From: a virus
Lineage: Duplodnaviria; Caudoviricetes
Length of the DNA: 59,329 nt
IMG/VR virus record: IMGVR_UViG_3300009034_000040
Location: 1 to 59,329 of that record
Reading direction: 5' to 3' (one strand)
A program made the translations under genes and the position numbers. Numbering within the stretch: position 1 is the stretch's first letter; every line of letters begins with the position of its first letter. Shown piece after piece: positions 3,751 through 40,973 of the stretch. The notes under the pieces were generated by a model. The model was not told the origin of the DNA, searched no databases, and saw only the letters and a program-made list of their open reading frames with translations.

Positions 3751-3759
3751 ATATAACCT

Positions 3760-4287
3760 CTAAATATGGGTTGCTTCTGCAAACCCACCTCTTGTAATCA
3801 TACGTCTATGAGCAGTAACCCGTCTCTGTGTTAAAGTTCCTTTCTCTAATTCTGTATTATATTCTCTCTGTGCTTGCGCAGCGTTCTGAGTTTGCATTGC
3901 CAACACCGCTACCGCTGCTGCTGCTGCTATCGCAACTCCTACCCCCAGAGTCATCAATGAAACGCTCCAAGTCTTAGCTGTTACAAATCCCCATTCAATA
4001 GCAGTTAAAGCCTTAACGGTAGAAGCAACTGCTGACATTACTCCTATAGCTGTACCGAATACCCCAACTGCTGCTGCTTGCTGACTAGACAATAAACCAG
4101 TAACCCTACCTAACGTAGCAAATGAAGTAGCTAATCCACCAACTCTACCCATAGTTGTAAGAACCGTAGACTTGAACCTATTAAAGTTCTTCTCTACACT
4201 ATCAAATGCTTCTTTAGTCTGATCTCTAGCCTTTATAGCCATCCAAAGTGTCGGTCCTGCTCCTGCCACACCTACAGCTGCCATCAT
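3760..4287 (-). CDS. Very short tape measure protein
   Basis: IKARDQTKEAF N-terminal motif; Ala/Gly-rich hydrophobic helices; position between chaperone/gp10 genes and hub. Start probably MMAAV at ~4287. Confidence 0.65.
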   Translation of the reverse strand: MMAAVGVAGAGPTLWMAIKARDQTKEAFDSVEKNFNRFKSTVLTTMGRVGGLATSFATLGRVTGLLSSQQAAAVGVFGTAIGVMSAVASTVKALTAIEWGFVTAKTWSVSLMTLGVGVAIAAAAAVAVLAMQTQNAAQAQREYNTELEKGTLTQRRVTAHRRMITRGGFAEATHI

Positions 4288-4721
4288 TCCATCTCCTTTC
4301 TCTTCTTCCACCAAAGTTTAATAGCGTTACTAAGTTTTATATGAGCTTCTTTATCTTTAAATTGTTTTAATTTTCCTTTACTTATATTTAATTTACGTTT
4401 TTCAGAGTATTTCCTACCCGTCATGGTTAAACTAATTTGTTTCTTTTGTTCCTCTGTTATAGGAGATTTCGGATTCTCATTATAATATTTTTTCATTATC
4501 CTGCTTTGTTTCCTTCTTAAACAACTCTCAGAATAAGCCTTTTTATTCGCTAATGATATTCTTTGCTTTCTAGCTTCACTTAATTTACTTCCCGTTAAAC
4601 TTCTAGATATCTTCTTTTTAGTTTCATCTGGTAAATGTCTATGACCCTCAATAAATCTTCCACCCTCATCACGCTTCGCTATAACCCTACCTTTCTTCCA
4701 ATATTCATAATTCCAACTCAA
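4284..4721 (-). CDS. NUMOD3-repeat DNA-binding protein (homing-endonuclease-derived; no nuclease domain seen)
   Basis: Repeats HLPDETKKKIS, LSEARKQRIS, ITEEQKKQIS, YSEKRKLNIS. Confidence 0.75.
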   Translation of the reverse strand: MSWNYEYWKKGRVIAKRDEGGRFIEGHRHLPDETKKKISRSLTGSKLSEARKQRISLANKKAYSESCLRRKQSRIMKKYYNENPKSPITEEQKKQISLTMTGRKYSEKRKLNISKGKLKQFKDKEAHIKLSNAIKLWWKKRKEME

Positions 4722-4735
4722 TATTATTATCTCTC

Positions 4736-5131
4736 CTACTCAAACATCTTATTAAGTTTATTAACTATTCTCTTCAATACTCTAAGTACTCCTTCAACTA
4801 CTCTAGGTGTCATTTCTCTTAGATACGTGTTCCAAAAATTTCCCTTCCAAGTCCCGTGTCCTTCAGCTACCCAATAAGCATACTTGGCTAAAGCACCCAT
4901 CTCTAAACCTAAAGGTTTATACGTAGCCAATACATATAGACTTTTCCTTAGATGTCCTGTTCTATCTCTGAATCCTCCAGTAGACTTTAATATTCTTTCT
5001 TCTTTACTTGCTATACGCTGAAATCCTCTATAGAGTCCGTCTTTCATTTCAGGTCCAAACTTCTTTATCGCTGCTCTAAACTCTTCAGCATTCTCAATCT
5101 TAATAGTTAACTCTACATTCATCTCACTCAT
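4736..5131 (-). CDS. HK97 gp10-like tail completion protein
   Basis: DRTGHLRKS and YAYWVAEG motifs. Confidence 0.75.
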   Translation of the reverse strand: MSEMNVELTIKIENAEEFRAAIKKFGPEMKDGLYRGFQRIASKEERILKSTGGFRDRTGHLRKSLYVLATYKPLGLEMGALAKYAYWVAEGHGTWKGNFWNTYLREMTPRVVEGVLRVLKRIVNKLNKMFE

Positions 5132-5424
5132 AGGTTACTACCTCTCTTACCTTTCTCTATTTCTCTCTCCACTTCTTTATCAACTGCTAACTGAACATTC
5201 AATAACCGTTCTATCATTAGATTAGAGTAAGGTTTAATCTTAACTGTTATTCGTCTATCCTTAATCAAACTCCATATCAACTCTCTTAAACTAGGTAATT
5301 CTAATTCTCTACCAAATATATCTCCTAAACTTAAGTTAAGACCTGATTCTCCTGACTTAATCATACGGTAAATAGCTAAGTCTGGATGCCCTACCCCACC
5401 CCTAACTGCCCTTTCAATTTTTTT
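5128..5424 (-). CDS. Tail assembly chaperone, -1 frameshift extension (GT part)
   Basis: The -1 frame from the slippery A-AAA-AAA (5418-5424) is open (KKIERAVRGGVGHPDLAIYR) and runs into ORF 5128..5364. Confidence 0.8.
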   Translation of the reverse strand, partial: KKIERAVRGGVGHPDLAIYRMIKSGESGLNLSLGDIFGRELELPSLRELIWSLIKDRRITVKIKPYSNLMIERLLNVQLAVDKEVEREIEKGKRGSNL

Positions 5425-5753
5425 AATTCTTCTCTATCTTCCACTGAGTAACCATTTACCTTGTCTGCTACAGCCATTAATACTTCACCTAAAGCTGTAG
5501 GTAATCCTTTACTAGTTTCATCCATCAAGTGTTCCAGTGTAATAATCTTAGGTTTCTCTATCAATGTAGCTATTAACATCTTAGCTTGTAGTTCTTTAAG
5601 ATTAACTATGCTCTGTCTAGTAACAGGGTTTACCTTAGTACATTCTGCTGTAAGTCTATTGCTTATTCCCCACGAAATACCTTCAAACAAGTATTTACCC
5701 TTATATTCTTTACCAAATCGTTCATCTAGCTCTATCTCCTTTCTTCTTTCCAC
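5391..5753 (-). CDS. Tail assembly chaperone (G)
   Basis: Follows the tail tube gene; slippery heptamer near its 3' end. Confidence 0.8.
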   Translation of the reverse strand: MERRKEIELDERFGKEYKGKYLFEGISWGISNRLTAECTKVNPVTRQSIVNLKELQAKMLIATLIEKPKIITLEHLMDETSKGLPTALGEVLMAVADKVNGYSVEDREELKKLKGQLGVG

Positions 5754-5907
5754 AACATCAACTCCTTTTACTTAATTAATCTGTTTATTGTGACATTCAA
5801 TCCACTTATCATGATAGAAATTCATCCACTTTCGTAATTCTTTTTTATTCATTGACATCAACTCCTGTTCGCTTAACTATAAATACAGTCGCTATTAACG
5901 ATCTCTC

Positions 5908-14578: not shown

Positions 14579-15736
14579 TTAGAGTAAGTGTGACAGAGCA
14601 ATATCTAACTCCTTTAATTTACTCTTAATAATAACCTTATTAACTGGACAACTAGATATCGAAACATTTATTGATTCCAATATTGCCTTTATCTTTTCTA
14701 AAGAGACTAATGATATATCAAAGTCTGCTTTCTTTCTTTCTTCTTCCTCTTCGTAAGGGCAAGGTTTCATAACCATTTCTTTCTTCTTTAAAGGTGATCT
14801 CAAAATTACTAAATCATGGAGATCGTAATAATCTGTAAATGGTCCTAAACCTGAAGGTTCGTGTATAATATGAATATCATTCCAAAGATCTAATCTGCCT
14901 TGTTTTCTAAGTTCATTATAGATTCTAGTCTGAATAGCTCTATCTATAAATGAACCTTTCTTAGCTGTAATTAAAAGATCGAAGTCATGTCCTTTACCTA
15001 ATTCAGCTGTGCTTCCTGCTAGTTTAGTGACCCCTGGACTAATAATCATGTTAGGAAGTGTATCTGATAGTTCAGCTAGTTTTCTTAATCTCTCTCCCTT
15101 AAGAATCTTAAACACTGAAGGTTGATTAGCTGGTCTATCAACAATAGCTACTTCATGAAGCTCCATCTTTTCAATACGTGTAAAACACTTACCTTCGCAG
15201 ACCGTACTAGAAGCTAGTGCTTCACCACCAATACTAAAGCCAGTGTATCTCCCGTCTTCTATTCCTTGCCAGGTTTGTTTTCCTTTTTCAATGTCTTGTC
15301 GTATTTCCCCAACAATGAAAAGACCGTTATCATCTACACCACTTTTCCAAATCTGTTTATCACTGTCTTCGTACTTATCTAGAATCTTAAATACAGGAAT
15401 GTTAGTATGCATTAAAGAACCAAAGTAGAAATCTTTATTTTTCTTAAAGTCTACCCAAGCTTCTTTAAGTACTGGTATAGGAATTAACTCGTTCTGTGAA
15501 TCTATTACCTCTACAGAAGCATAACCAGCTATGATGTTTCTCCCTTGATCCTTAAACTTCTTAGCTATAGGAAAGGAGAACACCCAAGGTGTCTGTATTT
15601 CTGGTTTAGGTAACTGATCTAACAACGTCTGTACTATATCACTTTTAAATATCTCTTTTCCCTCATTGAGAGGGTTAGACCCAGTAGCAAGGGTGTCTGG
15701 TTCATTACTACTGAGTCCACAAGAACAAGACGACAT
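14579..15736 (-). CDS. Prohead protease fused to a C-terminal Pol-beta-type nucleotidyltransferase-like domain
   Basis: IAGYAS, SLMH, GFSIGG, LHEVAIVDRPAN; C-terminal LAGS-x8-DFDLL. Confidence 0.85.
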   Translation of the reverse strand: MSSCSCGLSSNEPDTLATGSNPLNEGKEIFKSDIVQTLLDQLPKPEIQTPWVFSFPIAKKFKDQGRNIIAGYASVEVIDSQNELIPIPVLKEAWVDFKKNKDFYFGSLMHTNIPVFKILDKYEDSDKQIWKSGVDDNGLFIVGEIRQDIEKGKQTWQGIEDGRYTGFSIGGEALASSTVCEGKCFTRIEKMELHEVAIVDRPANQPSVFKILKGERLRKLAELSDTLPNMIISPGVTKLAGSTAELGKGHDFDLLITAKKGSFIDRAIQTRIYNELRKQGRLDLWNDIHIIHEPSGLGPFTDYYDLHDLVILRSPLKKKEMVMKPCPYEEEEERKKADFDISLVSLEKIKAILESINVSISSCPVNKVIIKSKLKELDIALSHLL

Positions 15737-15869
15737 GCATACCCTCTATTGACTAATACTTAATAGAGTAATTCCTAGTTATTTATATTTGATAGTTTAT
15801 TCTTTAAAATTTAAAATTAGTAAAACTTATTAAGGAGTATTAACTATTTAAATAATAGAAGGAATTTAA

Positions 15870-16025
15870 TTGGAAAAGAAAATTAAAGGCTTCAAGATAG
15901 ATGAAAAACTATGGAATACATTTAAAGCTCATTGTCTACTAAAAGGTATCAGTGTTGAAGAAGAATTAACTTCCTTAATCAAAGAGGTAATTAAAAATGA
16001 TCCGAACATTATTAAGAAAACTTAG
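15870..16025 (+). CDS. Ribbon-helix-helix regulator (not in the ORF track)
   Basis: TTG start, 51 aa; GFKIDEKLWNTFKAHCLLKGISVEEELTSLI. Confidence 0.65.
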   Translation: MEKKIKGFKIDEKLWNTFKAHCLLKGISVEEELTSLIKEVIKNDPNIIKKT

Positions 16026-16197
16026 AATCTTAAAATCTAAAGTACCAAAACACACTAAGAAATTTGTAGGGTTTGATTGTAATTATAAACTCTATAAGCA
16101 ATGGAGAATACGATGTATAAATAAAAACTTAAGAACAGGACATGAACTAGAACGCTTAATCAAGGAGGAACTTAAACGTGAAAGATACGAAGAGTAA
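15997..16197 (+). CDS. Ribbon-helix-helix regulator
   Basis: FVGFDCNYKLYKQWRIRC...ELERLIKE; similar to the preceding ORF. Confidence 0.6.
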   Translation: MIRTLLRKLRILKSKVPKHTKKFVGFDCNYKLYKQWRIRCINKNLRTGHELERLIKEELKRERYEE

Positions 16198-16336
16198 AAC
16201 ACCTAAATACCTTAACTTCCGTGTAACACCTAAAGAGTATTCTGATTTCTGGTATGTAGCTTCTTTGCTAGGAGAATCCAAGAAGAAGCCAGCCTTCCTC
16301 AAGATGCTCGCTAAGATAACGGAGTTACTTGAATGA
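16178..16336 (+). CDS. RHH-like small DNA-binding protein (not in the ORF track)
   Basis: GGAGG SD plus GTG start; YLNFRVTPKEY strand-helix pattern. Confidence 0.55.
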   Translation: MKDTKSKTPKYLNFRVTPKEYSDFWYVASLLGESKKKPAFLKMLAKITELLE

Positions 16337-16518
16337 CACCATACACAACAGTAGAAGTCATTAGAATCTGTATGTTCTGTAAGAAACCAGTATCTAAACT
16401 TGTTAAGGTTAATACTAGAATGTCTCCTGAAATCCTAGCAGACTTTAAGAAATTTCACTCAAAAGGTACAAGTCGCTATACTATCTGTGCTGACTGTAAA
16501 TTAAGGAGTAAAAGATAA
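16333..16518 (+). CDS. Zn-finger protein
   Basis: CMFC...CADC. Confidence 0.6.
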   Translation: MTPYTTVEVIRICMFCKKPVSKLVKVNTRMSPEILADFKKFHSKGTSRYTICADCKLRSKR

Positions 16519-16521
16519 CTA

Positions 16522-16899
16522 TTGAAAATTCACTATAGATGTTTCTCTAAACTAGAATCTAAAATAGTACGATCACTACTTGACTTAATATTACTTAAAA
16601 AGATTAAGGATGAGACTGCTACTTATCTCTATAAGATTAGAACGTCCATCCTCAATTCCTACAATGTTAATTTCGGTTTCAGTACCCTTCAAGAAACATT
16701 AAAGTTTTTAGAGTCAAAAGAATTCATCTCTAGTAAAATTACAAGAACAAACGTTTATCATCGCTTAATTGTAAATTATACTATTACTGAGAAAGGGTTA
16801 GAATATCTAAAAGATTCCGTACCTAAGCTAAAAATAACGTTTGACCTCTTACAGAAACAATTCAACTCTAATAATCAAGATTCTCTTAAAACTAAATAA
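16522..16899 (+). CDS. PadR-family winged-helix regulator
   Basis: TLQETLKFLESKEFI...YTITEKG. Confidence 0.8.
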   Translation: MKIHYRCFSKLESKIVRSLLDLILLKKIKDETATYLYKIRTSILNSYNVNFGFSTLQETLKFLESKEFISSKITRTNVYHRLIVNYTITEKGLEYLKDSVPKLKITFDLLQKQFNSNNQDSLKTK

Positions 16900-17628
16900 T
16901 TAAATTCTCCCGTCTTTCTTAGCCCAGTCAGTACTCCAGCTTTTCCATTTACCTCTAATTCTATGAGTAAGCTGTATTGTACCATCTAAGTAAACTCTAT
17001 ACCCTGAATCTCTTGCTTGCTTGCAGTATCCAAAGTCTTCTGCCCAACCCTCTATTAATGGGTAAAAGTTTATTCGTCTATCCTGTAATATCTTTCTAGG
17101 AATACTTAAGCAACCAGCACTAGTAGCTAACACTTCTTCTAATGGGTAGTACAATCGGTTTCTAAGTCTGTTCTTAGCTTTACTTATAGGACTCTTAAAT
17201 AACGTAGCTATCATTCTTCCTTCTGGGAATTCCCTTAAGTAAGCTCCACCTACTAAACAGTTAGGAGCAGTGGTTAATCCCTCTATTAAGTCTGTAGAAT
17301 CTATCAATATATCGCTATCTATAAAAATAGCAAAGTCTGGATCTAACCTTCTAGCTCTTGTCAGTAACAACTGTCTAGCATGAGCAATAATATCATAGCA
17401 TCGTTCCCAAGGTAAGCTCTTAGGTTCTACTGTCCAAAACCTTATTATATCTGTCGATATACCTGATTTATTGCCAAAAGTATATATTAAGTCTAAAGTC
17501 TTGTCTTCTGAATTATTTTCACAAAATATAACTTTATCTGGTGTAGGCTGTAACGCATATACTCGCTTCATCCACTCTTGGAAAATATCTTCTATCATAA
17601 ACACAGGTACTAGTAGTAAGGTTTTCAT
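16900..17628 (-). CDS. Glycosyltransferase family 2
   Basis: CENNSEDKT, IDSD (DxD), AEDFGYC, VYLDGTIQLTH. Confidence 0.85.
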   Translation of the reverse strand: MKTLLLVPVFMIEDIFQEWMKRVYALQPTPDKVIFCENNSEDKTLDLIYTFGNKSGISTDIIRFWTVEPKSLPWERCYDIIAHARQLLLTRARRLDPDFAIFIDSDILIDSTDLIEGLTTAPNCLVGGAYLREFPEGRMIATLFKSPISKAKNRLRNRLYYPLEEVLATSAGCLSIPRKILQDRRINFYPLIEGWAEDFGYCKQARDSGYRVYLDGTIQLTHRIRGKWKSWSTDWAKKDGRI

Positions 17629-18016
17629 ATCTAAGTCCTCTCATAACTAAAACCGCTTATACCATTCCGTAGGTTCTATACCCTTAGCTTTATTTTCTTT
17701 CTCTCGTTTCCTATAAGCTAAATAACAATCAGTTAATAGACTGCATTCGTTACAGTTCTCTCCTTTGGCTTGGTTAAAGAAGTGTGTAAAGCATTTCTTG
17801 CTGCATTGAACAGTCATTTCTAATCCTCTTCTTCTTCCTCAGTATATCTAGGACTCCAAGTTCCTTCTTGTTGTTTCTTTTCTTTTTTCTTTAAAAGTAC
17901 CCAAGCTTCTTTCTGAAGTTTACCTTTCTCATCATATTCATGTACTACTTTCCACTTAGCAATATCTTTCGTAGTCTTGTTATGTTTATTATCTAGATAT
18001 AATACTTTTATAGACA

Positions 18017-19570
18017 TTACTTCTCACCTGTCATACGCTTTAAATATTTAAGAAAAATCCCGTCAACTTGTTTACTTCTACCTGATTTATGAAATCCATA
18101 ACATTCTGCAAAAGCTTCTTCAGCACCTTTCATATAAGCATAATCAGAAGGAAACTTATAACCCATCTTAATTCCTCTATGATAAACATTTTCCCATTCA
18201 CGCCTATCACTAGAACTAAGTCGTTCCCATTTGCTATGGGCTACTTCATGAAATACTACTCTATTTAATTCAGGATCTGTCAAGTACTTACGTTCTAATC
18301 TCATCTCACCAGTTGATTTGCTAAAAGTTGCATCAGCACTAATTCTCTCACCACCTATTGAAAAGACATCTGCCTCATCTACTACGCTAATCTTTTTTAC
18401 ACCTTCTAAATCTTCTTTAGGCAATCTATTTAACACTGATTCTACTATATGTGTTTCTACTTCATCCTTTTGACCCTCTATCCTATACCCTTTAGGCTTA
18501 GGTTTTTTAGCATATTGTTCCGCTAATTCTCTAGTACGACTCCTAATTTTCTCAGGTACTTTCTCCCAATCTGTAATTTCCACACAGATATGTTGACCAT
18601 CATCAGTTATCCATTTACCTCCCGCTTGACTACACCAATCCTCAGCCTTACGTTCTGCTCTAGCTCTAGCTACCTCTTGCTCTATATCCTCTCTAGCTTG
18701 TGGTGAAGGTTGCTTAATCCAATCTATCTTCCAATAACCTTCATCCTCATGCTCTACTGGATCTAAAGGTTTCTGGTCTTCAGGTTTCATAAACAACCAT
18801 GCCCAATGCTTATACTCCTTACCTATCTTTAACTTGCGAAGTACAAACCTACCTTTCAGTTCTTTGCCATAGAAGAAGTACTCATGTAAATCCTTACGTT
18901 GTACTCCGTACTTAACTTCTCCTTTATCAAGTATCTCCATCCTAGCTATCTCTATGTAACGAGCTACTTCTTTCTCTTCTGGTGGTTCAGTATGTCTAGT
19001 TGGAAACCGTAACTCTCCTTCTCTAGTTAACCATTCCTTAGGATGTACATGTTTAGGTGTTGCTTGAGTTCTCTGAGCTGGCTTAAGCCTTTCTTTAAAA
19101 GCTCCCCAACTACTTATTCCTTCTGGCACTGGAGGATGTAGAGTCACACCTATTAACTTACCGTTTATTTCCATTCGTAAATCTATGTGATCTCTAATCT
19201 TCATTATCCTAAATAGTTCTTTCTTTAACGAACTGTTCTCTAACCACTGAACTATCTCATTAGAACATTCCTCTAGTAAACCTAAACCTTTATGCATCTC
19301 CTCAGGTTTTTCTCCTGGCTTAATCCTTTCTTTCCTTCCTGTAGGCCAATGTCTCTGTAGTACAAATGTAGTCTTCTGTTTAGACTTCCACTTATAGTAC
19401 TTCTCTGGTAAAGGTTCTCCTTCTTTAGCTAACTCTTCGTAATCTGGTAACTTCTTAGCTTTCTTAACTTCCTTCTTAACTATGAAGAATTCTCTAATTG
19501 TTCTTCCTTCTTTATCTTCTTCTCTTAACCAAGTACCTTTATTAGTTTTAAATTCCTTAATCTTTACCAC
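18017..19570 (-). CDS. LigD 3'-phosphoesterase-like domain fused to a zincin metallopeptidase
   Basis: FVLQRH, HIDLR, HPKEWLTREG, LDKG, FYGKELKGRFVL, WLFMK; C-terminal HEVAH...YA...EEAFAE. Confidence 0.75.
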   Translation of the reverse strand: MVKIKEFKTNKGTWLREEDKEGRTIREFFIVKKEVKKAKKLPDYEELAKEGEPLPEKYYKWKSKQKTTFVLQRHWPTGRKERIKPGEKPEEMHKGLGLLEECSNEIVQWLENSSLKKELFRIMKIRDHIDLRMEINGKLIGVTLHPPVPEGISSWGAFKERLKPAQRTQATPKHVHPKEWLTREGELRFPTRHTEPPEEKEVARYIEIARMEILDKGEVKYGVQRKDLHEYFFYGKELKGRFVLRKLKIGKEYKHWAWLFMKPEDQKPLDPVEHEDEGYWKIDWIKQPSPQAREDIEQEVARARAERKAEDWCSQAGGKWITDDGQHICVEITDWEKVPEKIRSRTRELAEQYAKKPKPKGYRIEGQKDEVETHIVESVLNRLPKEDLEGVKKISVVDEADVFSIGGERISADATFSKSTGEMRLERKYLTDPELNRVVFHEVAHSKWERLSSSDRREWENVYHRGIKMGYKFPSDYAYMKGAEEAFAECYGFHKSGRSKQVDGIFLKYLKRMTGEK

Positions 19571-21506
19571 TTAAATATTCCTCCATAAACTTATAAGTCT
19601 TAGGATTTCTTAATTTAACCCCAGCTGGATCTTTTTTATACCAAACAAAGGCTTCAGCAAACCCTTCATCCCAATTAACATTAGCATACTTACTAACCTT
19701 TTCTTCTTTCCAAACAGTTTCAGTCCAACGATTCGCCGTTTCATAATCTTGTGGTGCAACTACATGACCAAATTCATGATAGATAGTTTCTTTAGTTGAA
19801 CCCTTAAAAAATCCCATTTCTTTAGTTCTTTTATCATAATAACCACCTACAAAAGGCATTCCATATTTTTTATATTCTGAAGGAACTTCTTTACCTTTAG
19901 ATCGATAAAACTCATCTAAAGTATAAGGCTCTCGACTAATTCTAATATAGTCTACTCGCTTCTTTTTTTTCTCTGGTAAATGATTATATAAAGAACTTAC
20001 TTCATCTACTGTTTCCCTTCTTCCAACATCAAATATCAATTTAGTCTTATGATCTCTAGAAATTAAAGTTCTCTCAGTTAATCCTTCCCCTAAATCTCTA
20101 TCCTCTCCTATACATATATGCTTCCCCTCAACAGTTATCCACTTCCCACCCTGCTCACTACACCAATCAGCCTTCTCTACCTCTCTAGGCAAAGTTAATC
20201 CGCTAAGTCTCATAAGAACGTTCATCGAATCAGGTCTATTACGTTCTCTCACATGCTCTAAAACCTTAGGCTCAAAAACACCAAATGTGTAACAATCAGT
20301 TCCCTCTATCTTATATCTATTAACCTCAGGAGTGAAAACTCTAATTATATCTCCAACCTTAACTTTAATAGAAGTATTAAATGTCTTACCGAAATATGCC
20401 CAAGTCTTCCCTTTCAACTCTATTACTTTCTTAGGTTTCTTCTCTTTAACTACAGAAGCACATTCCTTAGAATACGGTCCAGCAGCTATATGGTAATTAT
20501 ACACACCAACTATAGGCTTCCCTTCTAAAGGTCCCTTCTTGTGCTTAGGTTGCTCTATATCCACAACTATACAATCTATCTCTTTAAGGTTCTTCAGTTT
20601 AAACCAAGTCTTGTTATGAGCTATGTCCTTAGCAGCCTTAATGTACTTACCCTCTAAAGTTTTAATCATAGCTCCCTCAGAACCCTTCATAGCTCTAACC
20701 TTCTTGATGGCTGCTAGTAATTCTTTCTCAGTCTTACATATAAACCCTCTCTTACCTATTACGGTAGGCTTCAAATGTTTAGTAGTCTTAATCTTCTTTA
20801 AGTAATCAAGTCGTTCTTTATACGGTAAATCTCTTAAGTCTTTTCCTTCCCAGTAAAGTACGTCAAATACCCAGAACTGAGATTGTTCGTCTTTTTCCTC
20901 TAAGTATTCCTTTCCGTTAGCGTAACCTATAAAACTAGTTCTATGTAAGACTTGATCGTTTACAACTAATACTCCTTCTGAATCTACTACTGTTCCTTTA
21001 GGTAATGCCTCATTAATATCAGTTACAGCTTTCTTAAACTTATTAGACTTCTTAAATCCTTCATCCTCTGAGAATAGTTCTACTGTATTACTCTTATGTA
21101 TCTGAATCCTCATGCCGTCTATCTTTATATCTACATAAGCTGGTAGGCTAAAGTCTTTATCATCAAATAGTTCTTTAGCTTCAAATATCCTTGTTGCTGG
21201 TTTATTAGGTTTAACAAAACTACCTACTCCTTTCTTTAAGCATTTATCCAGTGGGTGATTAGTCCAAAACCACTTATCATATCTACTTAATGTTTCTGTC
21301 GCTACTTCTTTATAACGCTTCTCTATTTTGCTTCTTATCTCTGGATGTCTATCCCATGCAGTTCTAAGTCTAGCTATTTCAAATGTTAAGTACTTCCAAC
21401 TCTTTCTCTTTAAACTGTTATTCAAGACTGTAATAGTCTCCGCTTCATTAACTTCTTTATCTGTGCATCCGTGTAGTATTTCCTTAAGTTCTCTAGCTTC
21501 TGCCAT
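19557..21506 (-). CDS. ATP-dependent DNA ligase fused to a zincin metallopeptidase
   Basis: KIDGMR, VVDSEG, VFDVL, EGAMIK, WFKLK and OB domain; C-terminal HEFGH...YA...EGFAE. Confidence 0.85.
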   Translation of the reverse strand: MAEARELKEILHGCTDKEVNEAETITVLNNSLKRKSWKYLTFEIARLRTAWDRHPEIRSKIEKRYKEVATETLSRYDKWFWTNHPLDKCLKKGVGSFVKPNKPATRIFEAKELFDDKDFSLPAYVDIKIDGMRIQIHKSNTVELFSEDEGFKKSNKFKKAVTDINEALPKGTVVDSEGVLVVNDQVLHRTSFIGYANGKEYLEEKDEQSQFWVFDVLYWEGKDLRDLPYKERLDYLKKIKTTKHLKPTVIGKRGFICKTEKELLAAIKKVRAMKGSEGAMIKTLEGKYIKAAKDIAHNKTWFKLKNLKEIDCIVVDIEQPKHKKGPLEGKPIVGVYNYHIAAGPYSKECASVVKEKKPKKVIELKGKTWAYFGKTFNTSIKVKVGDIIRVFTPEVNRYKIEGTDCYTFGVFEPKVLEHVRERNRPDSMNVLMRLSGLTLPREVEKADWCSEQGGKWITVEGKHICIGEDRDLGEGLTERTLISRDHKTKLIFDVGRRETVDEVSSLYNHLPEKKKKRVDYIRISREPYTLDEFYRSKGKEVPSEYKKYGMPFVGGYYDKRTKEMGFFKGSTKETIYHEFGHVVAPQDYETANRWTETVWKEEKVSKYANVNWDEGFAEAFVWYKKDPAGVKLRNPKTYKFMEEYLSGKD

Positions 21507-21778
21507 GACTCTAACATTATCTGTTTATTAGTCTTAGGTTGAGTACGTCTTTTATCGGTGTTCATCAGTTCTTGTTTAGTCAAGGTCTTCTCATAGATTC
21601 CTTTACCTATCTGTGCTCCACACTTCCTACACCATAGAATAGGTACACCATTCATAACTCTAGTTTCTAGGTAACTTCCTCCTTTCCCTCGATGTAAACC
21701 TGATTTGCAAGCAAGAGGTTTATCGAAAGCTCTAGGATGAGTAATCATCTTATATCCAGGTCTTACGAATATTGGCAA
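21422..21778 (-). CDS. Zn-binding hypothetical protein
   Basis: C...H and CRKCG motifs. Confidence 0.5.
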   Translation of the reverse strand: MPIFVRPGYKMITHPRAFDKPLACKSGLHRGKGGSYLETRVMNGVPILWCRKCGAQIGKGIYEKTLTKQELMNTDKRRTQPKTNKQIMLESWQKLENLRKYYTDAQIKKLMKRRLLQS

Positions 21779-22021
21779 ACTATTTCTCTTCCTTCTTAAT
21801 TCTCTTCCAGATAATGAACTTCTTGTCTAACATCAGATACCAATCCCATTCATTATTCCATGCTCTACTCCTATTACAATCTACACAAGGAGTACCACAA
21901 GATTCACCCACATTAAAACACCCTTTACAAGTAGGAATAGGTTTAGTTTCTTCTTGTAAATAGTATTCTCCTCGAATCTTGGTGAGAATCTTCTTCACAT
22001 CTGGAAGTAAAAAAGGTTCAC

Positions 22022-22438
22022 TCATTTCTTCTTCTCCTTAACTTTCTTTCTAGGTTTCCAAGTTCCTTTACCGTATTCCTGAGGTATCATTCCCATAGCT
22101 CTAGATTCCTCTGGAGTACGAGATGTCGGTCTTAAATCTCTAACAGGTGTAACTACAGGAGGAGTTCTTTTTTCTGGTATATCTATTACTGGAGCATCTA
22201 AGAACTCTCCTACTGGAATTGTACCTATCTTAATTTTCTCTAAGTCTGGATCGTTCTGTCGTTTAGCTCGTTGTGCTGTAGGTCCAGTAGGATTCCTTAT
22301 TATAGTAAATTCCCATTTCTTGTAAGGTACTATCTGAATATCTCCTCTAGCAGTAACTATTTCTTTATCTCCTTTGTACTGACCTCTTCCCCTTAAAGTT
22401 AAGTCTTTAGTTTTTCCCATTACAGCACCTCCTTTCAT
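22022..22438 (-). CDS. Hypothetical protein
   Basis: ORF in the head operon. Confidence 0.55.
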   Translation of the reverse strand: MKGGAVMGKTKDLTLRGRGQYKGDKEIVTARGDIQIVPYKKWEFTIIRNPTGPTAQRAKRQNDPDLEKIKIGTIPVGEFLDAPVIDIPEKRTPPVVTPVRDLRPTSRTPEESRAMGMIPQEYGKGTWKPRKKVKEKKK

Positions 22439-22530: not shown

Positions 22531-22806
22531 TTAACCTCTAAAGAATATATCCCACATACAGCGACATGAAGGATGTGAAGGCATCCTAGGTAAGAACATT
22601 CCTGTATGGTATCTCCTACCATTCTGACTGTCACAGTAGTTACACGTACGTGCATCAATCACAGATACCCACATTAACTCCTTAAACCCTGCTTCTCTAA
22701 ATGCTCCTTTCAAAGCTCCATTGTAAGTTCTAAGACTGAAGTCGTGTGCTAAGTCCTCCATGCGAATTAGAATTCCCTTGTCTGAAGTCCAAAATTCTTC
22801 TGACAT
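22531..22806 (-). CDS. MuF / SPP1 gp7-like minor head protein (core domain only)
   Basis: W-x4-D-x-RTC-xx-C...P-x-HP-x-CRC. Confidence 0.85.
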   Translation of the reverse strand: MSEEFWTSDKGILIRMEDLAHDFSLRTYNGALKGAFREAGFKELMWVSVIDARTCNYCDSQNGRRYHTGMFLPRMPSHPSCRCMWDIFFRG

Positions 22807-23043: not shown

Positions 23044-25650
23044 TTAAGTAGCAGTTCCTAATTTATCACTTGTAAATGGTTTACAAATACCAGTCAAATG
23101 TGCAACATCTCCAAGTGTATCAGAAGCATCAGCACCTAAACGTTTAATTCTTAAATGGATACACTCATCAGTTGCAGATGGAGCAGTTAAAGTTACACTA
23201 GAAATAACTAATCCATCAGTACTCGTTGAAGCAGAAGTAGTTACAGTTAAAGTTCCTTCTGCAGCAGCAGTAACATCTTCTCCAGATGCTCTCCATAAAT
23301 ATTCTACTTGCCATACACATTGTACTGAATCGTCTCCTGGATCAGCAGTTGGACAGCTCCATGCTAACCTAAGTGTTGGAGCAACAGTTCTATCCATTTT
23401 ATTAGGAATTCTAAAATTAGCAACTATAGTGTCATCAGTTGCATCACTGAATTCCCAAGCGATGCTTATTCCTAAATCTACTTGTGTAGCTGGTTTAACT
23501 CCTGGAGCTTTTAACCCTTCAGCACCTATCCAATTAGCACCAAGTACTCTAGCTGTTCCATATAAAGTTAATTCTCCATCTGTAGCGAAAGCAGCATAGT
23601 TAGTGGTTCCACCATCTCCAAAGTTAGATGCTCTAGCACTTAGTGTTTTACCTGACTGTAGTGTGATGTCTCCTCCTAATGGAATGTCAAGCATGCTTAC
23701 TCCTCCTGATTGTCTGCCTTGGGCTACTGTTCTATATCCTCCTGCTCCATCAGGAACATTAAGGTTTAAAGTAGCTGTGCCAATAACCATTGTGTTAATA
23801 TTAAGGTTTGTAGCTAAACTATTCAAAAAACTAAAGTAAAGAGCAGAAACCCTAAGATCTCTTTTAGTTGTTCCACCAGCATTAACAATAGCAAGAGTCT
23901 GATCCCCAGTCCAGTAGATATCTACATTATTAATAGCGTAAGCTGAAGTGCCGAATCGTAACCGTTGACCTTTCATGTCTAGTATACCAGCCATTTCTAC
24001 TGCGTCAAGATAAGCTACACCGTCTAAGTACAAGTCTTTCCATTTCAGACTAGTAGTTCCTAAATCGTAAGAGTCATCTGTTTTAGGTATGATGTGTCCT
24101 TGACTTCGAATAGCAGCAGTAGTGAATTCATGTCCTGATTGAAGGTTCATATCTATACCGTAATCAGCTACATTAATTGAGCCTCCTAAGTTAGTTCCTT
24201 TAAGTAGAACCATAGCGTCTAATGCTTGACCATTTCCTCCTACAGCCTCATTCTCAATATAAAGTAAATAACCTGTACCAAAACTTCCTTCTCCCGTAGC
24301 ATTTAAAGTATGAGTTCTAACATGAAGAGTTGTAAGTGTTGTTATGGTGTCTTTAACTCCCCATTCCGAATTGAATAAACCAGCTCTCATAGTTGTAATA
24401 GTAGCAGAAGTAGTATCTGACTTACCAATAGACTCAGCAAGTAATGTAGTTATGTTACTTATATCTACCCCATCAACGTTTGCTCCTTGTAATACAACAG
24501 TATATAAAGTTCCGCTAGCACTATCAATTCCAACTGAACTTCTAAATCGTGTTCCTCTATGAGTCCCTGTTAGAGCGTTAGTAGTATGTCGAGTATGAAT
24601 GTGAATTACCGTATCTCCTCCTGCAGTAGTGTAACCTTGTGGAGAAGCGAATGAACCTAACGCTATCGTATTATCTATGAATTGAATTCCTTCAATGGTT
24701 ACTCCCTGATCAGAAGTGATTTCTAATATGTCATCAGTGTAGATGATTCCCTGAGCATATACATCACTCCAAGGATCACCGGATGTTCCTAAATCTTGAA
24801 GTGCATCAGGATAGAACGCTAATCCACCTCTCTTTTCATCACAGTATAAACCTAAAGCGTAGAGTCGTGAGCATCTAACGTCATACCATTTTTTAGTGCT
24901 AGAACCTAAATCGTATGTAATATCCGTTAAAGGTAAGATATCACATTGGACTGTTACCTCAGACTTAACATGTAAATTATCGATGTAAGCATCATCCCAA
25001 AGAAAGGAGGTAGAACCTAAATCTCTAGTAGCATCTCCATCTGGAATTAAATTACTACCTATATCACCCGTCAAAGCTAAATCTACAGCTGCTATGTTTT
25101 CAACATCTAAATCACATTCTAAACTGAAAGTATCACCGTCAAAGTATATTGGATTAGCTAATATATTATCATCTGCATCTAGAATGTACGTGTCTAAAGG
25201 GTATCCTTCACCGTACATTATAGCAAACTTCTGATCATCAACTGGATTGTATAGTACTATAGCTGGTCCTACTTCATAACCTTCAATAGTGTTTAAAACT
25301 ATATCTCCGTCAGTTAAGTCAACAGTTAAAGCTCCGGTCATTGAACGAGTACCTGTTAACGGGAGTAAATCAGTATGTAAATCCCCTGTCGCAAATATCG
25401 GATGGACATGTACGTGATCATCTCTAGAAGCTAACGATCCAGTTCCAGCAGAAGCAGTTGTACCTATATCTTCTGGATCTGTATCTGATAGAACACTAGT
25501 AATACTTATAACGGGCTTTACGGACTAGCCAAGAGTTATGACTAGTTTTCCGTCCTCGTCCACCTGGATTACTGGATAAGTATCACCAGTGGGGTAATAA
25601 CCTACGGCTAAAACTATTCGTTGTGGCCTCTTAACTGTTGGTTGTGGCAT
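23044..25650 (-). CDS. Virion fibre protein, long isoform; predicted join(25548..25650, 23044..25517), 858 aa
   Basis: One frame from the ATG at 25650 (SD GAGGTGA), broken only by TAG at 25525-25527. The fibre motif SRDDHVH lies upstream of the track's ATG (25341). Repeated DLG-x4-W fibre motifs. Confidence 0.75.
25518..25547 (-). other. Predicted 30-nt bulge-helix-bulge/loop (tRNA-type) intron
   Basis: ACGG-AAA-ACTAGTCA-TAACTCT-TGGCTAGT-CCGT-AAA: a 4-bp helix with AAA 3' of each strand and an 8-bp intron stem containing the TAG. Confidence 0.7.
25525..25650 (-). CDS. 41-aa short isoform (unspliced) of the fibre gene, putative virion anchor protein
   Basis: MPQPTVKRPQRIVLAVGYYPTGDTYPVIQVDEDGKLVITLG*, strong SD, directly after the portal gene. 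Confidence 0.7.
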   Translation of the reverse strand: MPQPTVKRPQRIVLAVGYYPTGDTYPVIQVDEDGKLVITLG

Positions 25651-31231: not shown

Positions 31232-32089
31232 TTAATTTACCAAACAATTCTTTAATTTTTCACCTAAGTATTCTATAACATTAACTGTAACTGCATTTCC
31301 TAAACACTTATACCGTTGCGTATCACTTAACCATCTAGTCCAATTATCAGGGAATCCTTGTAATCTTTCCCATTCTACAGGAATTGAATACCTAACCTTT
31401 TCAACTAACTTACCATCACTCTGAACTATTTTTATACCTATTAAATTTCTTTCTTTAAAACTTCCTCCAACACCCAATGAATATGCAACCCGTATCCGTG
31501 ACCTTTCTCTTTGTGTCGATTTCTCCGCTTCACCAAAGTTTTGATTAATTTTTGAGATAGGAAATATTTCTTTGGTACGTCTGTCTCTAAGATGTCCTCC
31601 AATAAACACTCTTTCCCTATGTTGGGGAACCCCAAAATATTCGCTGTTAAGTACTTGCCATTCACACCAATACCCCAATTCATCCAACGATTCAAGAATG
31701 ACTTGGAATGTAAATCCTTCATCGTGACTGAGAAGCCCTTTAACGTTTTCAAGCAATAAAAATGAAGGTTTTTTAACTTTCGCAATTCTACATATCTCAT
31801 AGAATAATGTTCCACGAGTATCTTGGAAACCTTTACGCTTTTCTTGTGCAATTGAAAAAGGTTGACAAGGAAATCCAGCAGTGAGCAATGTGTGTTCTGG
31901 TATTCTGTCTGTGTTTTTCTTTCTGATGTCTCCTTCATCTAATTCATTCCACCCAAAGTGTATCTTATATATTTTATTAGCGTACTTATTATTGTCATTT
32001 GCCCACACACACTTCCAACCACTTCTTTCTAGCCCTAACCTAAAACCACCTATACCACTAAACATCTCTATAAAAGTTAATTCATCCAA
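31232..32089 (-). CDS. DNA (cytosine-5) methyltransferase
   Basis: FSGIGG, GFPCQPFS, ENVKG, PQHRERVF, RLQGFPD, GNAV. Confidence 0.95.
   Translation of the reverse strand: MDELTFIEMFSGIGGFRLGLERSGWKCVWANDNNKYANKIYKIHFGWNELDEGDIRKKNTDRIPEHTLLTAGFPCQPFSIAQEKRKGFQDTRGTLFYEICRIAKVKKPSFLLLENVKGLLSHDEGFTFQVILESLDELGYWCEWQVLNSEYFGVPQHRERVFIGGHLRDRRTKEIFPISKINQNFGEAEKSTQRERSRIRVAYSLGVGGSFKERNLIGIKIVQSDGKLVEKVRYSIPVEWERLQGFPDNWTRWLSDTQRYKCLGNAVTVNVIEYLGEKLKNCLVN
31441..31938 (-). CDS. Nested alternative-frame ORF; probable second subunit of the C5 methyltransferase
   Basis: 165-aa open frame inside the MTase gene carrying CLLEDILETDVPKKYFLS, a segment absent from the main frame. Confidence 0.55.
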   Translation of the reverse strand: MKETSERKTQTEYQNTHCSLLDFLVNLFQLHKKSVKVSKILVEHYSMRYVELRKLKNLHFYCLKTLKGFSVTMKDLHSKSFLNRWMNWGIGVNGKYLTANILGFPNIGKECLLEDILETDVPKKYFLSQKLIKTLVKRRNRHKEKGHGYGLHIHWVLEEVLKKEI

Positions 32090-40642: not shown

Positions 40643-40973
40643 TTCTATATTTCTCCCTTAATCTTCCTGTTCGAGGTAACACCCGTAGTTTTCTATTACA
40701 ATACCTATAAGGACAGTAAGCAGTATTTAAGTTCTTACCTAACCATCTGATTTGATCTATATGAATTCTACCATGTCTAGAACAAGTAGCATATAGATAG
40801 AATACTCCTTTCCTAATAGAGAAGTGATTCCTAACTAACCCTAGCTTAACTGCTTTCTGTTCTATAGCTTTCTTAGTTCTATCAGGGAACAACTGCATGA
40901 GTTCAGTCCAGCTAACACTGTTATATCTAAGTCTTAACAAAGCTATATCTTGCTTGCTCCATCGTTTACCCAA
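40632..40973 (-). CDS. Myb/SANT-like HTH plus Zn-ribbon protein
   Basis: WSKQDIALL...RTKKAIEQKAVKLGL; C-xx-H...C-x4-C. Confidence 0.65.
   Translation of the reverse strand: MGKRWSKQDIALLRLRYNSVSWTELMQLFPDRTKKAIEQKAVKLGLVRNHFSIRKGVFYLYATCSRHGRIHIDQIRWLGKNLNTAYCPYRYCNRKLRVLPRTGRLREKYRSVR

Follow-up and report, generated by a model that had tools for sequence, protein, structure and literature searches.

Three enzymatic activities, those of a ligase, a 3'-phosphoesterase (PE) and a polymerase, are joined in bacterial LigD (POL-PE-LIG), which works with Ku in NHEJ. Work from the Shuman laboratory is reported to show that LigD first adds nucleotides, next trims the 3' end or removes its phosphate, and finally seals. 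Repair enzymes can also be cargo of virus particles: Pol X, a ligase and an AP endonuclease are packaged in the virion of ASFV, a large eukaryotic DNA virus. In phages, the internal proteins and Alt of T4, the virion RNA polymerase of N4 and the ejection proteins of SPN3US are loaded into proheads, often cut by the prohead protease, and ejected into the host (PMC5512222, PMC7411985). For the N4 enzyme (vRNAP), an MPTase region is required for encapsidation (PMC5512222). The same paper describes phage polyvalent proteins, in which domains of MPTase, GNAT, Pol-beta NTase and methylase type occur together and which are predicted to be packaged (PMC5512222). The term "DNA ligase" does not occur in the main text of that paper, and we found no published description of a module made up of a nucleotidyltransferase (NT), a ligase and a PE.

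Here, we analysed a stretch of 59,329 nt (the window), which is the complete genome of an archaeal tailed virus. We consider it probable that a ligase, a PE and a protease-linked NT encoded in its head gene cluster form a module for healing and sealing DNA ends that is carried in the particle. The three ORFs were found where originally predicted, at 19557-21506 (ligase), 18017-19570 (PE) and 14579-15736 (protease-NT). They are all on the minus strand, as are all head-cluster features with coordinates given below. The order along this strand is mini-MuF, ligase, PE, protease-NT and the capsid gene region, and eight related contigs keep the same gene order. The protease gene is followed by a KE-rich ORF and then the MCP gene; it sits upstream of the scaffold and MCP genes, as expected for an HK97-type prohead protease.

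What the original prediction called the MuF gene is an ORF of only 91 aa (22531-22806). It has a Cys/His-rich motif, which we take to be typical of the MuF C-terminus, and its match to PF04233 is sub-threshold (19.8 bits, cut-off 29.6, E 5.1e-5). We refer to it as mini-MuF. It lies upstream in a tightly packed gene run shared with the ligase, and occupies the same place in four related loci (L003, L004, L005 and L007); it was not found there in L008 or L009. Between the mini-MuF and ligase genes lie three short conserved ORFs (21422-22438) of 138, 81 and 118 aa, two of which are Cys-rich, and homologues of o138 and o118 are found 5' of the ligase gene in L003-L007. From a 765-aa ORF through mini-MuF, ligase and PE to o65 the gaps range from -85 to +92 nt. 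A gap of 1163 nt with a wHTH gene on the opposite strand separates the ligase/PE run from the protease-scaffold-MCP run, which suggests that the two may differ in timing.

The tight packing of the genes within the head cluster would also suit enzymes that are made late but stay unpackaged, healing nicks, gaps and blocked 3' ends in concatemers before or during packaging. Packaging motors would stall at nicks, and ligase is required for productive T4 packaging. The enzymes would then act in the cytoplasm or at the portal vertex, and the fusions seen in relatives (see below) would only place them at the assembly site. We find this explanation unlikely, in part because the virus already has a ligase in its replication block. 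This block is far from the head module (PolB, 41802-44408; Rad51/RadA, 49067-50212), and the three genes are outside it, as originally noted, though the second, small ligase (40966-41826) sits there beside PolB. The head-module ligase is thus not the virus's sole ligase. Nor does circularisation need to rely on it, since the window terminates in a direct repeat of 555 bp and encodes RadA. In line with the original statement that no Ku is visible, a search of the complete 59-kb record at E ≤10 gave no match to Ku (PF02735); at the same threshold the AEP primase-polymerase (PF21686) was not matched either.

The protein encoded at 19557-21506 is certainly an ATP-dependent DNA ligase, as originally proposed. 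It matches PF01068 (E 1.8e-21; 77.2 bits, cut-off 26.2) and phrog_114 (E 3e-22). The adenylation domain spans aa 122-305 (20592-21143) and has motif I (KxDG) in the form KIDG. Its best PDB matches are DNA ligases, with 4eq5 at E 7.5e-10. The protein is 649 aa long when read from the ATG and 618 aa if it starts at the TTG at 21413, which is the start in the database record P0139, and this alternative start is possible. The C-terminal OB-fold domain of such ligases (PF04679) was not matched in the window at E ≤10. Approximately 135 aa of conserved sequence lie between ligase motif V and the junction motif described below.

The next gene encodes 517 aa from a GTG start, and its first 14 nt are shared with the 3' end of the ligase gene. 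Its aa 66-270 (18761-19375) form a divergent LigD-type PE domain with the originally described motifs, here Q72-x-H74, H128-x-D130-x-R132 and H176-P177. All ten relatives aligned keep these columns, with little or no variation (H176 in 9/10). In the characterised enzyme MbaPE the catalytic residues are H36, H42, D44, R46 and H78; Y82 also belongs to this set, and its alanine mutant Y82A kept partial activity (PMC3082917). All five essential residues have counterparts in the window protein (H74, H128, D130, R132 and H176), and W180 replaces the Tyr. An insertion of ∼50 aa within the first hairpin separates H74 from the H128-x-D-x-R motif. In a profile-profile comparison using hhalign, the PE family matched 26 canonical archaeal LigD_N sequences with 94.1% probability (E 1.3e-7, 107 columns). 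An HMM built from canonical LigD_N matched the window PE in three collinear pieces with 18.9 bits (E 4.7e-8 for one comparison), and 27 of 30 named matches in an ESM Atlas search were LigD_N clusters. Pfam LigD_N matched none of ten sequences, i.e., the window PE and its nine closest relatives, even at E 10, and the window PE protein passes no Pfam threshold. The AF2 model of the protein has a pLDDT of 38.8, which is too low for reading the fold. A search with the PE-domain profile found 305 proteins. Our canonical LigD_N HMM matches 76 of the 150 listed of these 305, and Pfam LigD_N is matched by 12 of 62 PE-family members. We predict that the window protein is a LigD-family 3'-phosphoesterase that would remove 3'-phosphates or 3'-ribonucleotides.

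The third activity is attached to the prohead protease. This protein of 385 aa has an HK97-type serine protease domain at approximately aa 54-213 (15098-15577; PF04586, E 2.9e-8, 34.4 bits, cut-off 21; phrog_9427, E 6.5e-13). At aa 222-325 (14762-15073) it is followed by a minimal NT-like domain of predicted Pol-beta fold with the motif G241-S242-x8-D251-F-D253. The original prediction had placed a GS-x8-DFD domain here, and the alignments bear this out: all 15 aligned homologues have the G, the S and the two D, and in a wider alignment G is present in 55/55 and the two Asp in 54/55 and 55/55. Against 13 archaeal MNTs, hhalign gave a probability of 42% with a 14-sequence profile and 80.5% (E 1.3e-5) with a 55-sequence profile, whereas four control profiles stayed at ≤1.2%. 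Pfam (PF01909/PF18765) matched neither the window domain nor any of 14 close relatives; the homologous domain of the fusion protein P0222 passes NTP_transf_2 (25 bits, cut-off 21). In the ESM Atlas the domain matched Polbeta/NTP_transf_2 clusters with feature scores of 0.92-0.95 and TM 0.48-0.56. A weak AF2 model (pLDDT 60.6) has the secondary-structure elements in the expected order; with this model Foldseek gave no match at E ≤0.001, and in a VIA-wide structure search the best Z was 5.3, with many NTase-fold rows at Z 4.0-4.8. At the third catalytic carboxylate hhalign sets a His opposite the MNT Asp, and a conserved (E/D)-P lies two residues on. With ∼100 aa (12 kDa) the NT is without the accessory domains needed by a templated polymerase. 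An acidic linker and a C-terminal helix conserved in the alignment (S..KLD.A...L block) make up the rest of the protein (14582-14761), and this tail may bind the capsid, judging by work on the HK97 protease. HK97-type prohead proteases digest themselves and leave the head, and an attached 12-kDa NT could leave too.

In both structure and profile comparisons the NT comes closest to the MNT antitoxins of HEPN-MNT pairs, and NTP_transf_2 is matched in 34 of the 41 archaeal genomes sampled. Both observations would fit a cargo serving anti-defence or RNA repair and not DNA repair. The NT would then modify proteins or nucleotides, for instance through AMPylation of host HEPN toxins in the manner of MNT antitoxins; the PE and ligase would mend RNAs, such as tRNAs, after cleavage by host ribonucleases, and the zincins would cleave defence proteins of the host. 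Pol-beta NTases and GNATs of polyvalent proteins are likewise classed as protein modifiers in passages of Iyer et al. (PMC5512222). Against this, the window ligase falls in a family of DNA ligases (PF01068), and its best PDB matches are DNA ligases as well. We regard this explanation as improbable, and return to it below.

Both the ligase and the PE protein have a C-terminal zincin module of ∼200 aa with an HExxH motif, similar to that of anthrax lethal factor. The original prediction did not include these modules. In the ligase protein the module covers aa 440-649 (19560-20189); its HExxH reads HEFGH (aa 577-581), and the Glu further downstream lies in EGFAEAF. In the PE protein, the junction motif (aa 311-330, 18581-18640) and the zincin, with HEVAH at aa 441-445, lie within 18020-18658. 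The HExxH motif and the downstream Glu are invariant in 9/9 aligned modules. Taken alone, the ligase module reaches 28.1 bits with PF07737 (ATLF; cut-off 27.4), four of the nine modules match this family at E ≤1, and the A4 zincin profile matches the catalytic domains of lethal factor in the PDB (E 2.5e-6 to 3e-5). Directly before the ligase zincin lies the junction motif DWCSEQGGKWITVEGKHICI (aa 447-466, 20109-20168), which is identical to that of the PE protein at 14 of 20 positions. These two are its only matches in a six-frame translation of the window. It recurs in four homologues of the prohead protease (P0027, P0042, P0052 and P0053), where it lies in an extension at the C-terminus. If phage polyvalent proteins and their metallopeptidase domains are a guide, the zincin may serve encapsidation or self-processing. 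Since the ligase and PE carry peptidase modules of their own, the original idea that the prohead protease releases them may be wrong.

To see how the domains are combined elsewhere, we took a census of the 150 PE-family proteins listed of the 305. A ligase is present in 70 of these, an NT in 45, and all three domains share one chain in 36. Fusion to a prohead protease domain, which the original prediction had named as a check, was seen in 32 of the 150 and fusion to MuF in two. Most of the 32 protease assignments rest on our own HMMs and not on Pfam. Pfam S78_2 was confirmed in all three XkdF-type cases tested (P0226, E 5e-32; P0167, E 1e-22; P0222, E 3e-27) and Pfam MuF in one of two (P0187, 54.8 bits), while S78 was unconfirmed for P0166, P0209 and P0173. 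The commonest long domain order is NT-ligase-PE-protease. Genes for such polyproteins lie directly 3' of the portal gene in three loci (L076, L077 and L080), in one of which (L077) the MCP gene is downstream. Ligase and PE are fused in 4/8 loci of close relatives. The window ligase and PE proteins have no fusion to protease or MuF, and the window proteins have two or three domains, compared with up to six recognisable ones in relatives (P0226). ANMV-1 is the only record of the GenBank phage collection with a related ligase and PE. Its gene at 3200-5800 (KP703175.1), annotated as ligase only, encodes NT (hhalign 94%, E 1.3e-7), ligase (PF01068, E 5.9e-17) and PE (88%, E 3.3e-6) in one chain, directly 3' of the portal gene (PF06381, E 3.2e-22). 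The PE-like part of ANMV-1 differs from that of the window in that it appears to be without the Arg and the third His, and zincin modules are absent.

These fusions support the original grouping of ligase, PE and NTase as one functional unit and tie it to the prohead far more closely than could be told from the window sequence. The three-domain fusions together with the fusions to protease or MuF indicate one recurrent module that has repeatedly been tethered to procapsid-interior proteins. They also contradict the view that the genes are chance neighbours, i.e., unrelated morons or displaced replication genes with fortuitous NT and PE motifs. The missing Pfam matches for the PE and NT regions of the window proteins would fit that view; the gene order kept in related contigs and the profile-profile matches with clean controls, like the census, make it very improbable. 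The direct fusion of the NT to ligase and PE likewise argues for a common nucleic-acid substrate and against the anti-defence or RNA-repair explanation.

The relatives, all of them uncultured, carry further fused domains. Those of the repair type are UDG, pyrimidine-dimer glycosylase, PNK 3'-phosphatase and MBL; other accessory domains are GNAT, MTase (including D12 methylase), a DUF6932 NTase, MBL and Acb1. Acb1 is fused in one relative and an RNA_ligase domain occurs in 2/62, both of which would fit anti-defence or RNA repair, but UDG, the dimer glycosylase and D12 methylase act on DNA. For unpackaged late enzymes the picture is similarly mixed. Base-excision-type domains (UDG, Pyr_excise and PNK3P) would suit DNA cleaning ahead of packaging, and a protease or MuF fusion would bring enzymes to the packaging site as well; however, a domain N-terminal to the prohead protease would go inside the shell rather than stay outside the portal, and Acb1 (anti-CBASS), GNAT and methylases are typical of entry effectors, not of packaging.

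Taken together, we conclude that the window module is a split and rearranged form of a widespread, so far undescribed NT-ligase-PE(-protease) polyprotein. Gene context and homologous fusions strongly suggest that ligase, PE and NT are loaded into heads. We infer their presence in the virion, their ejection into the host, the role of the zincins and the substrate. In the proposed mechanism, it is the protease or MuF part of the polyprotein that would bring the enzymes inside the procapsid. In the window virus the NT would enter attached to the protease, and the ligase and PE proteins would be encapsidated, or process themselves, via the zincin behind the shared 20-residue motif. The enzymes would accompany the genome and, upon entry into a new cell, repair nicks, 3'-blocked ends or breaks, with damage arising from particle ageing or from host nucleases. 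The UDG, dimer glycosylase, PNK-phosphatase and MBL domains of relatives point to a module better suited to the repair of nicks and damaged ends than to classical NHEJ. The NHEJ framing of the original prediction is thus weaker than stated, as Ku and an AEP polymerase are missing and the NT is a minimal domain.

On a broader scale, we give about even weight to the proposal that archaeal and bacterial tailed viruses share a widespread, undescribed class of capsid-delivered repair polyproteins, tethered to protease or MuF and injected with the genome. Its core would be NT-ligase-PE, often joined by UDG, dimer glycosylase, PNK-phosphatase, MBL nuclease, methylase or the anti-CBASS protein Acb1. 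If true, prokaryotic viruses would have here their first DNA ligase system carried in the virion, and LigD would have been re-invented convergently, with a transferase of the Pol-beta fold in place of the AEP polymerase. Its role would be the repair, on arrival, of ageing damage or of cuts by restriction or CRISPR nucleases.

Like bacterial LigD, the module unites an ATP-dependent ligase, a PE of the same family and a nucleotidyltransferase, and fused NT-LIG-PE forms exist. It differs from LigD in that the NT is a minimal Pol-beta-fold domain and not an AEP polymerase, Ku is absent, the PE has an insertion in its first hairpin, and the genes lie in a head-gene cluster, with fusions to protease or MuF in relatives. 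ASFV resembles it in combining a Pol-beta-family nucleotidyltransferase and a ligase, here proposed, as particle cargo that repairs the incoming genome; it is an unrelated virus without tethering to prohead protease or MuF, and its Pol X is a complete polymerase. As in passages of Iyer et al. (2017, PMC5512222) on polyvalent and MuF-fused effectors, the proteins are multidomain, are encoded beside portal, MuF and packaging genes, and have zincin modules and shuffled accessory enzymes, among the latter zeta-like kinases. The window and its relatives match this layout of multidomain proteins in a late or packaging context, with MPTase and shuffled effectors. Unlike polyvalent proteins, they have a core of DNA ligase and LigD-type PE, the carrier is mostly the protease and not MuF, and archaeal viruses are included. 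The T4 internal proteins and Alt, the N4 virion RNA polymerase and the SPN3US ejection proteins are similar as prohead-loaded enzymes, a property proposed here for the window module. None of these packaged proteins is a DNA ligase or end-healing enzyme, and many relatives of the window module, unlike those phages, carry the cargo as a covalent fusion with the protease.

The window, an entire virus record of 59,329 bp, is 100% complete according to CheckV and listed as linear by IMG/VR, and nearly all of its genes lie on the minus strand. It encodes the proteins of a tailed virus: TerL (PF17289), a portal (phrog_18178, E 2.6e-12), an HK97-type prohead protease, a KE-rich scaffold-like ORF, an SU10-like major capsid protein (MCP; phrog_24667, E 1.3e-29) and a tail tube protein. 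Among 50,697 phage records, the closest capsid proteins (26-29% identity) were those of the haloarchaeal siphoviruses HVTV-1 and HCTV-1/5/16 and of a Methanofastidiosa virus. The window has genes for Rad51/RadA and a family B polymerase as well, and a related contig was found in a record labelled as a Thermoplasmata MAG. Taken together with the capsid relatives, this leads us to regard the virus as an archaeal tailed virus. Two DNA methyltransferases, a C5 cytosine methylase (E 9.6e-81) abutting TerL and an N6/N4 methylase (E 1.3e-32), are encoded at 31232-32089 and 39113-40642 (both minus strand), which fits a virus under restriction pressure.

The original prediction placed a ligase, a LigD-type 3'-phosphoesterase (PE) and a nucleotidyltransferase (NT) in the head cluster and away from replication, and coordinates, PF01068 and motifs confirm this. 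ORF 19557-21506 (minus strand) encodes an ATP-dependent DNA ligase (PF01068 E 1.8e-21), and the replication block is far away (PolB 41802-44408, Rad51/RadA 49067-50212). Read from its first ATG, the ligase ORF overlaps the upstream 118-aa ORF by 85 nt (21422-21506); in the database, the protein (P0139, 618 aa) begins at TTG 21413, and the overlap is then gone. A second, small ligase of 286 aa adjoins PolB (40966-41826, minus strand; PF09414 RNA_ligase E 1.8e-10, PF01068 E 1.7e-5), so that the replication and head blocks have one ligase each. The ends of the window, recorded by IMG/VR as lacking end repeats, are direct repeats of 555-556 bp with 95.5% identity (1-555 and 58775-59329). They may represent terminal redundancy, or a permuted genome that was assembled from variants and wraps around. 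Given these repeats and RadA, circularisation does not obviously depend on the head-module ligase.

The predicted MuF gene stood in part. It is an ORF of only 91 aa (mini-MuF, 22531-22806) that occupies the same place in four related contigs, and its PF04233 match is below threshold (19.8 bits). Between it and the portal gene lies a 765-aa protein without a Pfam family (23044-25341, minus strand) with repeated DLG[ST]S..W.D.Y motifs; this slot varies among relatives and is filled by a Laminin_G_3/DUF2341 protein in L005. The PE and protease genes are separated by a PadR/wHTH-like gene on the opposite strand (16522-16899, plus strand), replaced by another reverse-strand gene in relatives, and by a glycosyltransferase-like gene (16900-17628, minus strand; phrog_1574, phrog_12406).

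ORF 18017-19570 (minus strand) contains the motifs Q-x-H, H-x-D-x-R and H-P. In the archaeal phosphoesterase MbaPE, H36, H42, D44, R46 and H78 are essential and Y82 is partly dispensable, according to PMC3082917. Their counterparts in the window are H74, H128, D130, R132 and H176, with W180 in place of the tyrosine, and these catalytic residues are invariant or nearly so among 10 relatives. For profile comparison, 26 canonical LigD_N domains were collected from archaeal genomes, 28 of the 201 genomes sampled carrying one. Against this set, the window PE family gave an hhalign probability of 94.1% (E 1.3e-7, 107 columns) over a match that spans H-x-D-x-R to the C-terminus; unrelated profile pairs stayed below 0.5%. 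With the canonical LigD_N HMM, the window protein scored 18.9 bits, the match being split into three collinear segments. When the PE profile was searched against 1.84 billion representative proteins, 305 relatives were found, of which 150 were listed; the same HMM matched 76 of the 150 listed, and the wider family has the consensus FV.Q.H.RG.S.H.DLR.E with normal spacing. By ESM Atlas features, LigD_N clusters made up 27 of the 30 named neighbours of the window PE protein.

Single-family and structural searches gave less. The window PE protein had no match in Pfam or PHROGs, and none of the 10 members of its subfamily alignment matched Pfam LigD_N at E <=10. The subfamily profile found no PDB sequence at E <=10, the single PE sequence found only 3p43 (E 0.91), the relative P0010 found 3p4h (E 0.12), and the PE region of the virus ANMV-1 found nothing relevant among PDB sequences. 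The window subfamily has a peculiar insertion of ~50 aa in the first hairpin. The domain tolerates large insertions: the relative P0004 carries a complete zincin module inside this hairpin, as well as a C-terminal DUF6932 NTase, and in P0017 a Hint/intein immediately precedes the FVMQRH strand. Residues, profiles, family search and ESM Atlas agree in pointing to a LigD phosphoesterase as the probable identity of the second protein.

The third ORF (14579-15736, minus strand) encodes a prohead protease (PF04586 E 2.9e-8) with the motif G-S-x8-D-F-D C-terminal to it. Modelling of the two predicted folds had a mixed outcome. The AF2 model of PE, built on the 10-sequence alignment, had an unusably low pLDDT of 38.8; that of NT was only moderate (60.6) with the expected helix-strand-strand-helix-strand order, and no PDB structure matched it in Foldseek at E <=0.001. 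No Pfam NTase family was found in the window NT region or in the 14 members of its alignment. VIA-align against 48,161 chains gave a best Z of 5.3, suggestive only by the tool's own caveat, and many of the rows at Z 4.0-4.8 were of NTase fold (TUT4/7, 1ylq, HI0073, CD-NTases, OAS2, GLD-2, MNT, Pol beta). Enlarging the profile from 14 to 55 sequences raised the hhalign probability against 13 archaeal MNT proteins from 42% to 80.5% (E 1.3e-5, 51 columns over the G-S...D-x-D core), and four control profiles against the larger profile gave <=1.2%. A homologous NT domain in P0222 passes Pfam NTP_transf_2 (25 bits, cut-off 21). In the ESM Atlas, NT was linked to Polbeta/NTP_transf_2 clusters at 0.92-0.95 by features and at TM 0.48-0.56 by its own models. 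The 14-sequence alignment gave no hhalign match to P0004 as DUF6932 NTase carrier, and the MNT HMM run directly against the window protein gave 3.2 bits, which is not significant. The MNT resemblance bears on a different explanation of the module, in which it serves anti-defence or RNA repair and NT would counter host HEPN toxins as MNT antitoxins do; we consider this quite unlikely.

From these results the protease tail probably has the NTase fold. The original prediction had it stand in for the AEP polymerase of LigD; no such polymerase was found in the window. As NT is a bare core of 100 aa, it is unlikely to be a templated polymerase; more plausibly it extends 3' ends by terminal addition or has a modifying role.

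A C-terminal module of ~200 aa, present in the ligase and PE proteins alike, had been overlooked. It starts with a common motif, DWCS..GGKWIT..G.HIC, with 14 of 20 residues identical between the two proteins, and a six-frame translation of the window contained this junction motif in these two proteins only. The motif, HExxH and a downstream Glu are invariant in all nine aligned modules. The module profile matched the anthrax lethal factor catalytic domain in the PDB (E 2.5e-6 to 3e-5), and, taken alone, the ligase module scores above the Pfam ATLF cut-off (28.1 bits against 27.4); the likeness is one of peptidase fold only. In relatives the junction motif also stands before GNAT and DUF6932-NTase cassettes and in the C-terminal extensions of four prohead protease homologues. 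With both zincin modules as queries, tblastn found no match in the 50,697 phage records, and a word-index search with that of the ligase found three proteins only. Complex prediction of mini-MuF with the ligase-zincin protein (score 0.00, mark 0.32) gave no evidence either way.

Eight IMG/VR contigs share the gene order of the window: TerL, portal, variable genes, mini-MuF, small ORFs of 138 and 118 aa, ligase, PE, a reverse-strand gene, protease-NT, scaffold and MCP. Ligase and PE form a single polypeptide in four of the eight (L004, L006, L008, L009), and NT is attached to the protease in four of the five that reach the protease gene. Extra domains are a SAM methyltransferase (L008), a metallo-beta-lactamase (L009) and GNAT (proteins P0011, P0012, P0016 and P0141).

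The fusions in the wider family are the decisive evidence. The 150 listed PE-family proteins were scanned with local HMMs (full-sequence E <=1e-4, domain E <=1e-3). A ligase domain was found in 70, a window-type NT domain in 45, a prohead protease domain in 32, MuF in two and zincin in two; NT, ligase and PE occur together in a single chain in 36. The most frequent multi-domain orders were LIG-PE (31), NT-LIG-PE (22), PE-PROT (12) and NT-LIG-PE-PROT (10). An independent Pfam census of the best 62 of the 305 matches found DNA_ligase_A_M in 29, LigD_N in 12 (top E 2.3e-15), Lactamase_B_2 in 11, Peptidase_S78_2 in five, DUF2213, Pyr_excise and RNA_ligase in two each, and MuF, UDG and PNK3P in one each. 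Fusion to prohead proteases, a check originally proposed, was found.

We further resolved the architectures of nine example proteins with Pfam, placing NT and PE with our own HMMs. P0167 reads NT, ligase, UDG, PE, S78_2 (E 1e-22); P0222 reads NTP_transf_2, methyltransferase, ligase, PE, S78_2 (E 3e-27); P0187 has MuF (54.8 bits) and then a LigD_N-like domain; and P0197 reads MBL, D12 methylase, NT, ligase, PE. For P0166, P0209 and P0173 the protease matched our own HMM only and was not confirmed by Pfam. P0226 (contig L080, 8001-12203) consists of NT, the anti-CBASS phosphodiesterase Acb1 (PF23474 E 2.6e-22), a methyltransferase, ligase, PE and an XkdF-type prohead protease (S78_2, E 5e-32), a known counter-defence enzyme being here tethered to a protease within one chain.

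The fusions show that the three predicted activities form one evolutionary and functional unit, and that the NT-LIG-PE unit has repeatedly been joined covalently to a prohead protease or to MuF, which is a head-internal protein. That the three genes are chance neighbours is contradicted by this census and hardly credible. A further rival, late cytoplasmic healing of concatemers before packaging, we regard as rather unlikely.

The polyproteins take the protease slot in three contigs: L076 reads TerL, portal (40% identical to Arthrobacter phage portals), polyprotein, KE-rich ORF; L077 reads portal, polyprotein, two ORFs, lambda-E-type MCP (35% identical to Rhizobium phage MCPs); and L080 reads portal, polyprotein. 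Since these head genes are like those of bacterial phages, the class extends into such viruses. In the GenBank phage collection, ANMV-1 was the sole record with a ligase-PE part. Its 866-aa gene is NT-ligase-PE (hhalign 94% for NT and 88% for PE; ligase PF01068 E 5.9e-17) and lies directly 3' of a gene annotated as a MutT-like phage hydrolase (KP703175.1, 1913-3193). The latter matches Pfam Phage_portal_3 (E 3.2e-22) and appears to be the portal gene. In HVTV-1 (NC_020158.1, 2146-10480) the same slot, between portal and head protease, holds very large genes, encoding a 1048-aa hypothetical protein and a 1313-aa protein annotated as zeta toxin, which suggests that a cargo slot is general in this archaeal virus group. 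In Lactococcus phages (e.g., KX456209.1, NC_031013.1), a stretch matching the XkdF-type protease is annotated as DNA methyltransferase in some GenBank records and as head maturation protease in RefSeq, which hints at methylase-protease fusions in cultured P335-type phages.

A virion-carried repair kit is the best available reading, and it is much better supported than the original prediction could know; packaging and ejection are its predicted steps. The tail of the HK97 protease is a targeting signal. The protease, with its conserved C-terminal helix, would take the attached enzymes into the procapsid. In the window lineage the module would have split, with NT remaining on the protease, and the zincin modules gained by ligase and PE may be encapsidation or self-processing devices, an analogy drawn from the metallopeptidase domains of polyvalent proteins. 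According to PMC5512222, encapsidation of the N4 virion RNA polymerase requires its MPTase-containing region, and processing of P1 DdrB precedes packaging. The enzymes would then pass into the host along with the DNA, where PE would remove 3'-phosphates or 3'-ribonucleotides, NT may add a nucleotide and the ligase would seal. As originally noted, no Ku was found in the window, nor was an AEP LigD polymerase. We therefore reject classical NHEJ, the joining of two-ended breaks. Because both are absent, and relatives have additional UDG, dimer glycosylase, PNK-phosphatase and MBL domains, nicks and 3'-blocked ends arising from base damage or nuclease attack are the likelier substrates.

If the module is packaged, virus particles bring a repair kit for their own DNA. 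This would explain how long-lived sediment particles tolerate deamination, nicks and blocked ends, and mending the cut would join the ways already known by which viruses counter restriction and CRISPR nucleases. The fused members would make up a new prohead-protease cargo family, and protease fusions would offer a natural system for enzyme loading into capsids. Among the main texts of open-licence papers, we came across none that describes a ligase-PE located in the head module or fused to a protease. Searches for the ANMV-1 ligase and for LigD joined with phage virion packaging returned none, those tying XkdF to a ligase nothing relevant, and those on packaged or injected virion DNA ligase or phage end joining nothing on ligase-PE cargo. 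The search for an archaeal virus ligase with prohead protease or portal gave only the magrovirus papers and a single paper on a prophage. PMC5512222 does not use the phrase "DNA ligase" anywhere in its main text.

The closest known kinds are the bacterial LigD-like repair enzymes on one side and phage polyvalent proteins and capsid cargo on the other. With LigD the module shares the logic of three activities, whereas its nucleotidyltransferase is of a different fold, and it would represent a second, independent assembly of that logic.
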